A DNA stretch of 52,472 nt from NCBI GenBank assembly GCA_943356445.1, contig CALREZ010000002.1, positions 1-52,472 of the forward strand, written 5' to 3'. The translations under genes and the position numbers were made by a program. The notes below the pieces were generated by a model, which did not search any database, was not told where the DNA came from, and saw nothing but the letters and a program-made list of their open reading frames with translations. The DNA comes from Candidatus Nomurabacteria bacterium (GTDB lineage Bacteria; Patescibacteriota; Minisyncoccia; Phycocordibacterales; CAIJYI01). How positions within the stretch are numbered: position 1 is the stretch's first letter; the number at the start of each line of letters is the position of its first letter. Positions 20,440-26,123 of the stretch are shown in pieces.

Positions 20440-20458
20440 TTATCCACAGTTATCCACA
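20440..20458 (+). promoter_or_regulatory. Two tandem perfect DnaA boxes
   Basis: TTATCCACA-G-TTATCCACA. Confidence 0.7.
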
Positions 20459-20855: not shown

Positions 20856-21212
20856 GTGTCGCATCAAGTAGTGTTTACTCTGGAAACACTGTTATTTTTA
20901 TTGTCAAAAGGAACTATTATGCAACTTGCTATAGATCTTCTGAAACGAATCAATCTGTTCTATATAAACTTTGGAAGAAGTTCAAACGAAAAAGTGCTTA
21001 TTACCTATTTTAATATGACGCAAGGTGAAAGCGCTGAAAGTGTTCAAAGTTCCCTCTCCCGGTTGTTTCAAAAGAGTCTGATTATGCGAATACCTCAAGA
21101 AGGAAAAGAGGGACCATGTACGGAAATTATTCCCACTGAGTACACGCTTGGGTTGCTGGATAATTATTCTGTTGAAGAAATTTTCTTCAACAGGATGCAA
21201 AAACAAGACTAA
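20856..21212 (+). CDS. Hypothetical protein, possible winged-helix (ATG 20919 likely start)
   Basis: ESVQSSLSRLFQKSLIMRI resembles a wHTH recognition helix and wing; terminator at 21218-21247. Confidence 0.55.
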   Translation: MSHQVVFTLETLLFLLSKGTIMQLAIDLLKRINLFYINFGRSSNEKVLITYFNMTQGESAESVQSSLSRLFQKSLIMRIPQEGKEGPCTEIIPTEYTLGLLDNYSVEEIFFNRMQKQD

Positions 21213-21269
21213 AATACAAAAACGCGGCCAAATAGCCGCGTTTTTTTAAACAAGAAAGAAGATATTTTA

Positions 21270-21533
21270 TTATTGATAGATTTCGTGCGAACCTATTTTT
21301 AATAAAAATACCGTATTTCCTTCCCCGTATTCAAAAATGATTCGGAATTTGTAATTTACGGAAAAACTATAAAAACCGGATAATTGCCCGCTAAGTTTAT
21401 GAACTTTTAACAGTTTATGATTTTCTTGGTTCTTAAAAAGTTCAATTTTTTCAATAGTCTCATCTTGAAGCGGTGTCGGAAGCGATTTCCACTGACGGAT
21501 GAATATGGGGGCATAAGCAATATCTAATTCCAT
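21270..21533 (-). CDS. RelE/ParE-family toxin
   Basis: LKVHKLSGQLSGFYSFSVNYKFRIIF...IGSHEIY. Confidence 0.85.
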   Translation of the reverse strand: MELDIAYAPIFIRQWKSLPTPLQDETIEKIELFKNQENHKLLKVHKLSGQLSGFYSFSVNYKFRIIFEYGEGNTVFLLKIGSHEIYQ

Positions 21534-21546
21534 AGAAAAAAGAGGG

Positions 21547-21768
21547 TTATCCTAATTGCCGAGCAATATCTCTTATATCTCCGCGTATTGCCTTCCCTGC
21601 GCGAATTTCTTGTTGCGCTTTAAGGATGTCGCCAATAGCTTCATCTTCTGCAAGAAGGTGAAGCGCCTGCCTCACCACTTCGGCTTTATTTGAAGCCTTC
21701 CCTCTTTTTATAAAGGAATCAATAAACTCTTCAAGTGTTTGGTTTAATGGAACAGAAAGTGTACTCAT
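21547..21768 (-). CDS. RHH (ParD-like) antitoxin
   Basis: TLSVPL...FI...NKAEVVRQALHLL; directly upstream of the toxin. Confidence 0.8.
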   Translation of the reverse strand: MSTLSVPLNQTLEEFIDSFIKRGKASNKAEVVRQALHLLAEDEAIGDILKAQQEIRAGKAIRGDIRDIARQLG

Positions 21769-21839
21769 AATAATGTATGATATTATACTATGATAATATC
21801 ATATTTTATTTTTTCACCATAGTCAAGACAAGTAAAATC

Positions 21840-23492
21840 TTATTTTACCCCGTGTTTCTTGCGTATTTCGGTAAGTTCTTGTTGTTCGGCTTCTGCTTTG
21901 GCTTCTTTTCCCTCTTCACCAAGCTTTTTGAGCTCTGATTCCGGGAGTTTTATAAGTTCTAATGTGCGTTTCTCAAGATATTCCGCGGTATTGAGATTTG
22001 GATCTTCCAAAACTTCTTCCAAAAGCGCGTGCAGGATAAGTCCAAGTTTTGGTCCCGGTGTTTCATGTGTAACCTCCATAATCCTCGTTCCGTCTATTTT
22101 GAGCATCCCAACAGATACCGGGGCCCTCATAGCCTCGTCTATCATTGCCTCGTATTTTCGCAAGCGATAAGGCTTTTCAACCGGTCTTCCCATCCCGATA
22201 CGGTCACAGGCCCTTATTTTCATAAGATCCCAGACGTTTTCCGCTCCGACATTCGCTACAATCCTTCTTACGGCAGAAAGCGTTATTTTTTCCACATCCG
22301 AGAAGAAAAGATGGTACCTTACCAGTGATGAAACACTATCCGTAAGTTTCACGGGAAACCTGAGACGTTCCATTACCTTCTTGGAAACCCTTCCTCCGAC
22401 AACGTCATGGCCGTAAAACGTCCAATTATCCTTCTCTTTTGACCATCTGCGGGTATCCGGTTTGGCAATATCATGGAAAAGGGCCCCTAAACGAATGTGG
22501 AGAGGCCAGTGGTTTCTAGCAGAATGATCAAGCGCTCGGATATTATGCTCCCAGACGGTATAGATATGACTGCCATTTTGTTCCACCCCGATACCATTTT
22601 CCAATTCCGGAGCTATAAAACGAAGCAAGTTGAGTTGATGGGTCAGGATAATACCCTCCATGGCATTATCCGACATAATCATTTTTGTGAATTCGTCACG
22701 TATTCTTTCGTATGAAACATGTTTTAGGTTATCGGAAAGCCTTTTTATGGCATCTTCCGTCTCTTTTTCTATGGTAAAACCCAATTCCGTAGCAAAACGA
22801 GCGGCACGAAGCAGACGGAGCGCGTCTTCATTGAAACGGTCTTCAGGATTCCCTATGGCTCTGACTATTTTGTCCTTTATATCCTCTTGTCCTTTATAAA
22901 GATCAATAATAACCCTCTCTTTTGGGTTGTATGCCAGCGCATTTATCGTAAAATCACGGCGTTTGAGGTCATCTTCCAGTTTTTTACTGAAAGTTACCTC
23001 ATTTGGATGCCGTTTATCGCTATATTCGGACTCCATACGGTAAGGGGTAACTTCTATGATGACTGTTTCATGTGTAACTATCTGATTGATCGCTCCCGCG
23101 GGTCGCTGGGGTGTAGGGGCCTGTCCAGTGACAGGCGGATGAAAACCAATGGTTTTCATACTTTCCTTTGTTTCACATGTAACATTTTCGTCACCATCAT
23201 CTGATGTTTCATGTGCAACACTCTGCCGGATGGGGTTTGTAACCCCATCCGGAACGTTTGTGTCCACCACTACCCCCACCGTTCCAAACGTATTCTCGTA
23301 GAAGGTTTTTTCAAAAAGGCCGATTATTTCTTCCGGAACGGCATTTGTGGTAACATCCCAGTCTTTCGGTTCTCTCCCTAAGATAAGGTCTCTTACGCAG
23401 CCGCCGACCAAATAAGCTTCAAAACCGGCGTCTTGAAGAGTTTCTGTTACACGTGTAACATATGATGGAATATGGCTTTGCAAGTCTTTCAT
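21840..23492 (-). CDS. cca: CCA tRNA nucleotidyltransferase with HD domain
   Basis: LVGGCVRD, DWDVTT, DLKRRDFTINALA, RFNEDALRLLRAARF, LFHDIAKP. Confidence 0.92.
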   Translation of the reverse strand: MKDLQSHIPSYVTRVTETLQDAGFEAYLVGGCVRDLILGREPKDWDVTTNAVPEEIIGLFEKTFYENTFGTVGVVVDTNVPDGVTNPIRQSVAHETSDDGDENVTCETKESMKTIGFHPPVTGQAPTPQRPAGAINQIVTHETVIIEVTPYRMESEYSDKRHPNEVTFSKKLEDDLKRRDFTINALAYNPKERVIIDLYKGQEDIKDKIVRAIGNPEDRFNEDALRLLRAARFATELGFTIEKETEDAIKRLSDNLKHVSYERIRDEFTKMIMSDNAMEGIILTHQLNLLRFIAPELENGIGVEQNGSHIYTVWEHNIRALDHSARNHWPLHIRLGALFHDIAKPDTRRWSKEKDNWTFYGHDVVGGRVSKKVMERLRFPVKLTDSVSSLVRYHLFFSDVEKITLSAVRRIVANVGAENVWDLMKIRACDRIGMGRPVEKPYRLRKYEAMIDEAMRAPVSVGMLKIDGTRIMEVTHETPGPKLGLILHALLEEVLEDPNLNTAEYLEKRTLELIKLPESELKKLGEEGKEAKAEAEQQELTEIRKKHGVK

Positions 23493-23552
23493 AAACGTAA
23501 TTGTAACAAATTTTTGATATTTTGCGAATTTTAGTGTAGTATACGGTTATAA

Positions 23553-23624
23553 GCGCCCGTAGTGAAACGGATATCACTTCAGTCTTCGAAACTGACAGTC
23601 CAGGTTCGAGTCCTGGCGGGCGCA
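23553..23624 (+). tRNA. tRNA-Arg(TCG)
   Basis: Cloverleaf; anticodon arm TCAGT-CTTCGAA-ACTGA; GTTCGAG T-loop; CCA not encoded. Confidence 0.92.
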
Positions 23625-23687
23625 CAGGAGATATATAGATATTTTTTCTATTGAAAAAACTTTTATTTTTCGTATAATGGCTACATC

Positions 23688-23758
23688 GCGGGTATAGTTT
23701 AGTGGTAGAATATGACATTGCCAATGTTAAGGCGAGAGTTCGATTCTCTCTACCCGCA
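23688..23758 (+). tRNA. tRNA-Gly(GCC)
   Basis: GCGGGTA...TGACA-TTGCCAA-TGTTA...TACCCGCA; TTGAAA/TATAAT promoter upstream. Confidence 0.93.
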
Positions 23759-23837
23759 CAAGGAGAAAATACCGCCTAAAATGGCGGTATTTTCTTTGCA
23801 TTCTTGCTTTGTTTTTGCAAACTTTTTTGTGTATACT

Positions 23838-24152
23838 ATGAATATGGAAATTAAAACCGAGTTTGAATCCGCTCTTATTTTGCACAATATGCGCGAGTTT
23901 GTGATGGATAAACGAAAGTTTGACGAATGTATCCCGGAAAACATGAAAGAAGATCGAGAATATGGGTTTCTTGTGTCAGGACAACGCAATTATTGGCTTT
24001 TGGGAAAGTTTCCATTGCACGAAAAACGAGAAGATGGAGTGGTTTCGGAAGACCCTCGCGCTATTATCAATATCTTTGAAGTAACGCATTTCATTGATAA
24101 TGGGCAAATTTGCACGCGCGGAAAATACAAAATACTTCAGATCGTCGGATAA
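23838..24152 (+). CDS. Hypothetical protein
   Basis: 104 aa from ATG 23838; the longer tracked ORF overlaps the tRNA. Confidence 0.6.
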   Translation: MNMEIKTEFESALILHNMREFVMDKRKFDECIPENMKEDREYGFLVSGQRNYWLLGKFPLHEKREDGVVSEDPRAIINIFEVTHFIDNGQICTRGKYKILQIVG

Positions 24153-24220
24153 ATACTCATTCATTATGACTTTTACATGCCTCTTATGAGGCATTTTTTA
24201 TTCCCATAAATATGTAAAAC

Positions 24221-24249
24221 TGTGGATAACTCTGTGTACATGTGTATAA
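24221..24249 (-). promoter_or_regulatory. DnaA boxes in an AT-rich intergenic region
   Basis: TGTGGATAA at 24221, TGTGTATAA at 24241, degenerate box at 24233. Confidence 0.6.
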
Positions 24250-24433
24250 AGGACACCTTTTTTAATCATCAGCAAGCATTCTTTTTTTGACCTTTTGTCA
24301 ATAAATGTGGCTTAAAATAACGTTATTTGTTTAGGTCGTCAAGGAAAAAATAAGAAAATATAAAGGAAACAAAACAACGTTTCACATGAAACGTTGTTTT
24401 GTGGATTTCCTTTAAAAGGGGTATTATCTTTTT

Positions 24434-24943
24434 ATGCCAAAGACAGAAAAACAAGAAACCGGGGATATTGGAGAGAAAATTGCGGGACTTTTCTTGAAAT
24501 CTAGAGGATTTGAAATTGCGGGGACGAACTACCGAAAACCCTGGGGAGAAATTGATATTATTGTTCGCAAAAAAGGGAAGATTCATTTTATAGAAGTAAA
24601 GACGGTAAAATTACGAGAAAAAACATCGTCTGTTTCTTGTGAAACAAACATCGGCTTTTTTAGAAAGAGCGGGGAAGTTATTTTAGAAAAGTTTTCACCT
24701 CCGGAAAAGTCTTATGCTATCAAAGAAATTTTAAACGGAGATGAAACCAGTGGCAATGGGTATCGCCCAGAGGATAATTTGCACCCATGGAAACTGAAAC
24801 GATTAAAAAAGGCTATCTTGTCGTATCTGGAAGAAAAACGCATGACAGAAGAAGACGACTGGCAATTTGACGCCGTTACGGTTCGTCTTGATGAAAAAGG
24901 GAAGATTGCTATGGTTGAATACCTTGAGGATATAATACTCTAA
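24434..24943 (+). CDS. yraN: YraN-family endonuclease with internal insertion
   Basis: GDIGEKIA..FL, NYRKPWGEIDII, FIEVKT, WQFDAVTV. Confidence 0.88.
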   Translation: MPKTEKQETGDIGEKIAGLFLKSRGFEIAGTNYRKPWGEIDIIVRKKGKIHFIEVKTVKLREKTSSVSCETNIGFFRKSGEVILEKFSPPEKSYAIKEILNGDETSGNGYRPEDNLHPWKLKRLKKAILSYLEEKRMTEEDDWQFDAVTVRLDEKGKIAMVEYLEDIIL

Positions 24944-24993
24944 AAATTTTTACACAAGAGGGAGTCCTGTATAAAATCTGTTTTTTATTTTAG

Positions 24994-25064
24994 TCGGGGC
25001 GCCGAGAATCGAACTCGGTCTATCTGCTCCCAAAGCAGACGTACTGCCGGTATACTACGCCCCG
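24994..25064 (-). tRNA. tRNA-Pro(TGG)
   Basis: Reverse complement CGGGGCG...TCTGC-TTTGGGA-GCAGA...GTTCGATT...CGCCCCGA. Confidence 0.92.
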
Positions 25065-25220
25065 ATATCCAATACTCTAGCACAAATCAAATAAAAAATC
25101 ACGTAAAAATAATTTGACTATACGTGTCTGGTTTGCTATTATCAGCGGTGTCACTCCGCGGCACTGTCCGCGGAATTTTGTTTTTTGAAAATCAACATTC
25201 TCGCAAAAAAGGAGAAATAT

Positions 25221-26123
25221 ATGGAAAAACAGCAAAATCCTCAGTTTTTTAAAGAGGTGCGGTCTCAAGAAGATGCGACGGTAAAATTTATTTTCCGTGC
25301 GCCGGAAATAATTGAATTCAGCTATATTAACAAAAACGACGGCAAAGATATTATTTGTGCGCCGACGCAGACCTCGTGTAATCTTGGCTGCAAATTTTGT
25401 TTTTTGTCTGACTATAAGCTTAAAGTAAGGAATCTTCGTCTGGAAGAAATAATCGGCCCGATAGATCACGTTACAGAAAGCCTCGGTTTACTTTCTCATG
25501 AAAAACGCAATAAAGTGCTCCTTATTTCGTTTATGGGGTGCGGAGAACCGTTGTTGAATCTGAAAAACGTTATTTCTGCGGCAAAAAAGATACGCGAAAA
25601 GTATGCAAAGGAATATAACGTTGTTCGTTTTGCTATCGCGACCCTCGTACCAAAACCCTCGCTCCTTGTTCATCTTACAGAAGAAGTACAAAAAAACAGT
25701 CTTGCCGTTAAACTGCATTTATCACTCCATTCGCCGTTTGATGAAAAAAGAAAAGAGATTATGCCCTCTGCTTCCGGTATAAAGGAAAGCGTGGAGCTTT
25801 TAGAACAATTTCGCAAAGAAACGGGAAATTCCGCTGAGATTCACTATGCGATGATAGACGGCGTGAACGATAGAGATGAAGATCTTTTTGGTCTTATGGC
25901 TCTTTTTGAAGGAAGAGACATTCCGATAAAGTTTCTGATTTACAACGAAAAACCTTCGCTTGAATTGAAAGAATCCATGCGTGTGGCTTTCTTTCGCGAA
26001 GAACTTGCTAAACGGGGTATCGTTACAGAGTTCTATATTCCGCCCGGACGGGACGTTGGTAGCAGTTGCGGTCAGTTCCTTATGGAATACTACTTGGAAT
26101 TCAACCAGAATAAGAAGAAATAG
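25221..26123 (+). CDS. RlmN/Cfr-like radical SAM protein lacking the N-terminal domain
   Basis: CAPTQTSCNLGCKFC, FMGCGEPL, LSLHS, GVND, GSSCGQ; AGGAG RBS before ATG 25221. Confidence 0.85.
   Translation: MEKQQNPQFFKEVRSQEDATVKFIFRAPEIIEFSYINKNDGKDIICAPTQTSCNLGCKFCFLSDYKLKVRNLRLEEIIGPIDHVTESLGLLSHEKRNKVLLISFMGCGEPLLNLKNVISAAKKIREKYAKEYNVVRFAIATLVPKPSLLVHLTEEVQKNSLAVKLHLSLHSPFDEKRKEIMPSASGIKESVELLEQFRKETGNSAEIHYAMIDGVNDRDEDLFGLMALFEGRDIPIKFLIYNEKPSLELKESMRVAFFREELAKRGIVTEFYIPPGRDVGSSCGQFLMEYYLEFNQNKKK

Follow-up and report, generated by a model that had tools for sequence, protein, structure and literature searches.

A probable parS cluster at the cca-yraN locus of a Candidatus Nomurabacteria genome and its relation to an expanded loop of the CCA-adding enzyme

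A 52,472-base stretch of DNA from a Candidatus Nomurabacteria bacterium (contig C2:1-52472, hereafter the window), which is part of an assembly of 1,051,814 bases in 34 contigs (G000), carries eight parS-like 16-mers within and between the divergent genes cca and yraN. Judging from sequence, we regard the span 22059-24646 as most likely the single parS cluster of the chromosome, and its 16-mers are very probably genuine ParB sites. The cluster is real and conserved and is probably functional as a ParB-only centromere of a known kind; the unusual twist, which we consider well supported, is that the DNA sites have shaped the protein encoded by cca. Taken as a whole, we are fairly confident in the interpretation that a single ParB-type parS cluster is under selection at the DNA level and has most likely lengthened a loop of the CCA-adding enzyme. 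The genes, the loop and the sites (the latter listed without a strand) are as follows.

21840..23492, minus strand: cca, predicted CCA-adding tRNA nucleotidyltransferase with an HD domain, 550 amino acids, with six parS-like sites and one decayed site
22059..22074: parS-like site, three mismatches, encoding E-V-T-H-E-T in the C-terminal part of CCA
22345..22360: parS-like site AGTTTCACGGGAAACC, three mismatches, in a different phase (R-F-P-V-K-L)
22704..22719: decayed site TCTTTCGTATGAAACA, four mismatches (H-V-S-Y-E-R)
23058..23270, minus strand: expanded CCA head-domain loop, residues 75-145 (71 amino acids), between FGTVGV and IEVTPYR, with three parS-like sites
23064..23079: parS-like site, three mismatches, loop unit I-V-T-H-E-T
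23169..23184: parS-like site, two mismatches, loop unit N-V-T-C-E-T
23205..23220: parS-like site, two mismatches, loop unit S-V-A-H-E-T
23445..23460: perfect 16-bp palindrome TGTTACACGTGTAACA, two mismatches to the consensus, encoding Y-V-T-R-V-T at the CCA N-terminus
24369..24402: 34-bp palindrome lying some 30 bp in front of yraN, with the intergenic parS-like site 24378-24393 (three mismatches) at its centre
24434..24943, plus strand: yraN (UPF0102 family), 169 amino acids with an insertion of about 50, divergent neighbour of cca
24631..24646: parS-like site, two mismatches, encoding S-V-S-C-E-T in YraN, at the edge of the insertion

The window and the whole assembly were searched for TGTTTCACGTGAAACA with up to three mismatches; we take this pattern, carried over from an earlier sequence-only reading of the same DNA, to be the palindromic 16-bp parS consensus. 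Nine matches were found in the window, while 100 shuffles gave a mean of 0.36 and a maximum of 3, none reaching nine, and eight of the nine fall in the span 22059-24646. The assembly as a whole contains 12 matches, so that eight of the 12 lie within these 2,588 bases, at a density about 810 times that of the rest of the genome (binomial P about 7e-19, or about 3e-16 once the number of spans is corrected for). The four matches outside the span are at chance level, given that 0.36 per 52 kb scales, by our own calculation, to about seven per genome. The local enrichment claimed by the sequence-only reading is thus borne out, and the motif is not enriched genome-wide. Its list of eight sites needed revision: seven pass at two or three mismatches, the copy at 22704, which it had flagged as weak, fails the threshold with four, and the site at 22345 had been overlooked.

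All eight sites are copies of the 16-bp inverted repeat TGTTNCACGTGAAACA at two or three mismatches, distributed as six in cca, one in yraN and one in intergenic DNA, with the decayed copy at 22704 also in cca. The half-site positions G2, T3, T4 and C6 are intact in 16 of 16 half-sites. Copies of a mobile or repetitive extragenic palindromic-like element were considered and ruled out, as similarity around the 16-mers ends by about 21 nucleotides.

The sites recur at the cca loci of relatives. From 40 relatives of the same order, 30 cca loci were fetched, and 27 of them have at least one site at up to three mismatches. A wider sample from the Paceibacteria, comprising 80 further loci (488,625 nucleotides) searched at up to two mismatches with the reversed pattern as a control, yielded 158 sites versus one for the reversed pattern, 64 of the 80 loci having at least one. 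These sites occupy positions between roughly 2.25 kb upstream of the start of cca and roughly 2.9 kb beyond that start; their consensus is the canonical parS, and exact copies of that consensus occur in the cca loci of relatives. Across 343 sites, the half-site positions G2, T3, T4 and C6 are kept in 92-99%, and positions 1, 5, 7 and 8 vary, a profile that reads as that of a contacted binding site and not of random near-matches. In five better-assembled relatives, the share of the genome's matches (up to three mismatches) lying at or near cca is 9/13, 4/4, 5/8, 2/5 and 3/10. The gene upstream of cca is often yraN (13 of 30 loci by tblastn). In two relatives of the same genus, L039 and L040, further parS-like sites (five and two, respectively) lie 1.6-2.1 kb upstream of cca, and within this genus the cluster apparently moves among adjacent genes.

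A ParB that is probably cognate to these sites is encoded elsewhere in the genome, as the sequence-only reading had supposed. It comprises 379 residues (L001:1172-2311), matches ParB_N at 8.2e-29, contains a GERRLR box (GERRxR) in its translation and scores 158.7 bits against TIGR00180, for which the cut-off is 58.45. Its best solved relatives are Spo0J of Thermus (2.9e-47) and of Bacillus (1.1e-41), and parS-bound entries of Helicobacter pylori and Caulobacter were matched too. By these matches, the genome is predicted to encode one chromosomal, Spo0J-type ParB with an N-terminal CTP-binding (cytidine triphosphate-binding) domain and a helix-turn-helix. Three weaker open frames with a ParB_N domain (183, 444 and 445 amino acids) also occur, at C2:109615-109857, C8:9485-9727 and C6:15133-15366. 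As for a ParA (Soj), AAA_31 gave no match in G000 and CbiA reached 24.4 bits, below its cut-off of 25.4, in a 34-contig assembly for which this is not proof of absence; the ParA partner of a canonical three-part ParABS system is therefore lacking from what was found. In the order sample of 41 genomes, ParB_N was detected in 39 and a ParA-type AAA_31 over the cut-off in 2, which suggests that this order generally works with ParB alone. A single SMC-like protein was detected; it has 778 residues (contig C3:10437-12773; L116:438-2774, minus strand) and scores 492.5 bits against TIGR02168, below the cut-off of 567.35, the NCBIfam model being about 1,180 residues long.

The cluster is probably close to the replication origin, and we do not equate it with the origin. 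Cumulative GC skew in the window reaches its minimum at 23-24 kb, where the gene strand switches from minus to plus, and in each of the five better-assembled relatives one contig holds both cca and dnaA, with 26-44 kb between them. Among the relatives, G004 has its skew minimum at cca, G018 has it close to cca and G024 has it at dnaA. The proximity to oriC that the sequence-only reading cited as known for parS sites finds support here in the dnaA distance and in the GC skew, though the position of the minimum, at one gene or the other, differs between relatives.

Selection acts on the DNA of the sites, the codons being nearly fixed on the parS-compatible choice. To define motifs by the peptide alone, we took every V-[STA]-x-E-T in seven cca genes of the genus (29 motifs) and used the rest of these genes as background. 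Valine was encoded by GTT in 27 of 29 motifs (background 0.34), the second codon ended in A in 29 of 29 and the third in T in 28 of 29, glutamate was encoded by GAA in 29 of 29 (background 0.65), and threonine by ACA in 22 of 29 (background 0.28). The constraint on synonymous positions that the sequence-only reading had put forward as a check is thus present at these motifs. A same-codon comparison of G000 with G004 gave 33/33 in shared sites versus 274/433 elsewhere, a significant difference that is partly circular, the sites having been defined by their DNA match in both genomes; for this reason, the peptide-defined test is the one relied on here. Among the long open frames of G000, 20 V[STA]xET peptides occur, of which the five in cca and yraN are within three mismatches of the pattern and the 15 elsewhere have at least four.

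Residue changes that create sites are seen in the close subclade outside the loop: E-I-T-G-E-K became E-V-T-H-E-T, K-F-P-K-K-I became R-F-P-V-K-L, and K-I-S-K-E-R became H-V-S-C-E-R. At the position orthologous to 22059, the peptide is E-I-T-G-E-K, with 8-10 mismatches in the DNA, in seven further loci, two of which (L010 and L011) belong to this genus. The site at 22345 is retained in 5 of 30 loci, every one in the close subclade, and the position orthologous to 22704 has two mismatches in the sister genomes L007 and L009 and one in L016. The 16-mer orthologous to 23445 occurs at up to three mismatches in 9 of 30 loci, on an x-V-S/T-R-V-T peptide that is itself widespread.

The common reading phase that had been noticed for seven intragenic sites is correct. 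Of 68 sites in cca (30 loci), 57 are in the V-x-x-E-T phase, nine in the F-x-V-K phase and two in the third. This sharing is partly to be expected, because the canonical site, when read in the third phase, runs into a TGA on both strands (the frame TGT TTC ACG TGA holds a stop codon); it also reflects the common descent of the sites.

A further change in the protein is in the CCA head domain, where the three sites reported earlier were confirmed within residues 75-145. We measured the loop between FGTVGV and (V/I)EVTxxR in 79 related loci. It comprises 11-12 residues in 57 of them, typically V-N-E-D-T-E-D-E-T-L-K-V, and 71 in G000. The 57 loops of up to 12 residues hold four sites altogether, versus 38 sites in the 22 longer ones, and all eight loops of more than 30 residues carry two to six sites, that of G000 carrying three. 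Loop length correlates with site number (Spearman 0.61), and the DNA of the long loops contains 38 sites in 877 codons, or about one per 69 nucleotides. In a cca tree (FastTree, loop removed, midpoint-rooted, support values not read), the expansions that carry sites belong to at least four clades, namely this genus, L115+L066, L077+L072 and L078, each nested among short-loop taxa. The claim that the cca insertion tracks the palindrome thus holds, with at least two sites in each of the eight loops of more than 30 residues and at least four clades involved. L039 and L040, both from the genus, have short loops of 15-16 residues with two sites.

In an AlphaFold2 model of CCA built on an alignment of 27 sequences (mean predicted local distance difference test score, pLDDT, 85.5; predicted template modelling score 0.77), the fold is confident outside the loop. 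Residues 81-141, between strands 72-77 and 143-150, have no secondary structure and a pLDDT below 50, which the gappy alignment at the loop may partly explain. The loop is accordingly predicted to be disordered. Within the genus, V-x-x-E-T units are its recognisable conserved parts, and the spacers vary in length and sequence. By our own codon reading, the D-E-T of the ancestral loop (D-E-T-L-K-V) already encodes most of the right half-site, and L043, L047 and L052 have loops with V-S-D-E-T and one site; these therefore offer a plausible starting point for the expansions.

On these data, we propose the following mechanism. Dimers of the Spo0J-type ParB would engage the 16-mers through the helix-turn-helix, shut into CTP-dependent clamps and then spread, and the spread ParB at a dense, origin-proximal cluster would build a partition complex that marks the origin region. 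Since a ParA was detected neither in G000 nor, in general, in the order, we infer that the complex works in the manner known from bacteria without ParA, chiefly to organise origin DNA and to load the short SMC-like protein. The divergent cca-yraN home is conserved across the Paceibacteria (candidate phyla radiation), with individual sites turning over, and, since the region is almost all coding, sites are written into reading frames, chiefly the V-[S/T]-x-E-T frame. In the subclade, selection on the DNA has fixed codon choice and altered conserved residues, and, by the addition of units that carry sites, it most likely lengthened a disordered turn in the head domain of CCA. That the gain of sites drove the growth of the loop has, in our estimate, an even chance or a slightly better one. 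The stronger version, in which selection for more centromere sites repeatedly inserted disordered V-[S/T]-x-E-T units in at least four Paceibacteria lineages and rewrote conserved residues, is evenly balanced, and the loops may exist in order to carry sites.

Besides the limits given above for the tree, the structure model and the same-codon comparison, several observations weigh against this interpretation. All eight sites of G000 have at least two mismatches, though consensus-perfect sites exist in relatives, and a central CG with two good half-sites is intact in just one of the eight. At up to two mismatches, 16 of the 80 wider loci have no site, and, the genomes being related, counts across them are not independent. 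At up to three mismatches, the genome-wide backwards control is about as frequent as the pattern in G009 (5 vs 8), G018 (4 vs 5) and G024 (8 vs 6), and in these genomes only the clustering, not the genome count, is therefore informative. The x-V-S-R-V-T peptide is widespread, yet of 30 loci just 9 keep its DNA within three mismatches. No site is present in nine of the 22 longer loops, including L055, L048 and L112 (20-26 residues) and six of 13-15 residues, and by alignment the sister genome G004 has the YraN insertion without its site. The parB gene is unlinked to the cluster, being on another contig in G000 and 241 kb away in G009, and Pfam did not detect an SMC hinge in G000. The dnaA gene of G000 is on another contig (C4), with a second skew minimum there, and the minimum of G024 is at dnaA, 26 kb from cca; on this account, the cluster appears to be near oriC but not at oriC in every genome.

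The likeliest rival accepts the 16-mers as genuine parS and holds that the loop grew neutrally, sites settling in insertions that tolerate change and in V-S/T-x-E-T-like peptides. We judge it unlikely. In its favour are the siteless loops among those of more than 12 residues, the siteless YraN insertion of G004 and the many sites that lie outside loops on old peptide motifs; moreover, near-sites would be cheap if, as we read the codons, the ancestral D-E-T-L-K-V encodes most of a half-site. Neutral growth does not readily explain, however, why every one of the eight loops of more than 30 residues is filled with sites at such a density, why this recurs in at least four clades, or why the V-x-x-E-T units are conserved between members of the genus when the spacers are not. 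Residues of conserved domains have also been changed to make sites, indicating that site gain can override the protein. In keeping with the rival, however, several sites stand on ancient, conserved peptides that are retained in many orthologues lacking the palindrome, as at the N-terminus; the sequence-only reading had listed a result of this kind among those that would refute its idea. Overall, its interpretation is partly supported.

YraN, for its part, offers no second example. The sequence-only reading had proposed its insertion as a further carrier of a site, and we rejected this: G004 has the insertion and no site, and in other families the site is found on a conserved E-V-K-T-V-S-x-E strand of a protein without the insertion.

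A second alternative, which we regard as very improbable, is that the palindrome is bound by another factor, or forms an RNA hairpin in mRNAs, and is not a ParB site. The deviation of most local sites at the central CG and the missing ParA, which leaves the canonical three-part system incomplete, would suit it, as would the intergenic copy: it is the core of the 34-bp palindrome, and paired arm changes in two relatives are what a hairpin would produce. Against it, the consensus of the 80 loci is the canonical parS, of which exact copies exist, and ParB is present in 39 of 41 genomes. The sites also occur in two opposite-strand genes, in intergenic DNA and in two phases, which suits a site in double-stranded DNA, and a Rfam scan of 21000-25500 found no family but tRNA over the gathering score, three tRNAs alone passing and three weak matches below the threshold being treated as chance.

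Least probable of all is selection of V-T-H-E-T as a protein motif, metal-binding or modified, with the palindromes a by-product: the peptide is enriched (five of the genome's 20 motifs in cca and yraN) and its His, Cys and Glu are common metal ligands, but codon choice at synonymous positions, ACA included, almost invariably suits parS, the DNA core persists despite a variable middle residue (H, C, R, Y, G, D), the same 16-mer occurs in intergenic DNA and in the F-x-V-K phase, and the loop is predicted to be disordered.

The two host genes were assigned as follows. CCA matches PolyA_pol (7.6e-37), PolyA_pol_RNAbd and HD in Pfam; the NCBIfam CCA tRNA nucleotidyltransferase models matched too, under their equivalog cut-offs. 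The gene is single copy in the genome, and G30, G31, R34, D44 and D46 are invariant in the alignment. With its PolyA_pol head (GG..RD, DxD), RNA-binding and HD domains, the product is predicted to be a class II CCA-adding enzyme. YraN belongs to UPF0102 by its Pfam match (PF02021, 1.4e-15, 57.8 bits vs a cut-off of 23.6), an alignment that covers the N-terminal half only because of the insertion; every score against the NCBIfam YraN family models was under its cut-off.

The intergenic site was found by pattern search in six of the seven loci of the genus. The arms of the 34-bp palindrome are 16 nucleotides long and 100% complementary. In the genus relatives L036 and L088, the outer arms are long and differ in sequence, yet complementarity is kept by paired changes, and in L038, L039 and L040 the palindrome has just 8-9 nucleotides per arm. 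The element may extend the contact with ParB, or it may form a cruciform or, ahead of yraN, an RNA hairpin. Two further features lie in the stretch between the genes.

23553..23759, plus strand: tRNA-Arg(TCG) and tRNA-Gly(GCC), between cca and yraN
24221..24229, minus strand: perfect DnaA-box 9-mer in the cca-yraN intergenic stretch

The 9-mer was scored against what we take to be the DnaA-box consensus. Two more perfect boxes lie in tandem at 20440 and 20450 (20440-20458), 10 bp apart. With 44 perfect boxes genome-wide, three within 4 kb amount to a modest local excess, and boxes are packed most densely next to dnaA (contig C4, 12-13 kb). The idea that oriC itself is at the cluster was dropped in view of this modest signal, the boxes beside dnaA and the disagreement among the skews of relatives.

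An open frame of 102 amino acids between the tRNAs and yraN (23844-24152, plus strand) has no Pfam or NCBIfam match. Directly downstream of cca is a two-gene toxin-antitoxin pair (window 21270-21768, minus strand), consisting of a ParD/ribbon-helix-helix-type antitoxin of 73 residues and a RelE/ParE/HigB-like toxin of 87 residues, whose Pfam scores are slightly under the curated cut-offs.

Clustered, origin-proximal and often intragenic parS sites are already well established. Compared with the chromosomal clusters of Bacillus subtilis, Pseudomonas aeruginosa, Streptomyces coelicolor and Caulobacter, the cluster described here presumably has the same 16-bp consensus and is alike in having several copies, probably near the origin, many in coding sequence. 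It differs from them in that eight sites are packed into 2.6 kb, six of them in one gene, as the sole cluster of the genome; in being tied to cca-yraN and not to parAB, with parB unlinked; and in the visible remodelling of cca, which has a disordered loop of 71 residues built on site units as well as substitutions that generate sites. According to PMC4368675, nine of the ten parS sites of P. aeruginosa lie in coding sequence, and the link to reduced genomes drawn by the sequence-only reading is therefore not borne out, intragenic parS not being special to such genomes. PMC7333895 describes ParB and parS without a ParA homologue in Streptococcus pneumoniae and Staphylococcus aureus, in a ParB-parS-SMC arrangement, gives parS numbers from 1 to 20-23, and treats the reason for this variable number and for the clustering as an open question of the field. 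Our case resembles those two ParA-less species in having ParB and parS with no ParA found, alongside an SMC-like protein. Unlike theirs, that protein is short (778 residues) and below the equivalog cut-off, and its hinge went undetected. In the literature, covered mostly outside subscription journals and at the level of titles and the first lines of abstracts, we found no parS cluster in this group and no protein loops built from parS units.

The finding points to the probable centromere of a large group of bacteria that are uncultured and little studied, with a ParB-only system anchored at cca-yraN, and the cluster can serve as an easy marker by which fragmented assemblies are oriented near the origin. 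It is also a clear instance of a protein being shaped by a DNA-binding site, in which codons, residue swaps and a disordered 71-residue insertion in an essential enzyme track a palindrome. The result bears on why parS number varies and why sites cluster, the question raised in PMC7333895. If our interpretation is true, segments of a protein would owe their existence to a function at the DNA level, the history of parS gain and loss would be readable from the CCA loop, and the process may represent a general route to protein insertions in dense genomes.

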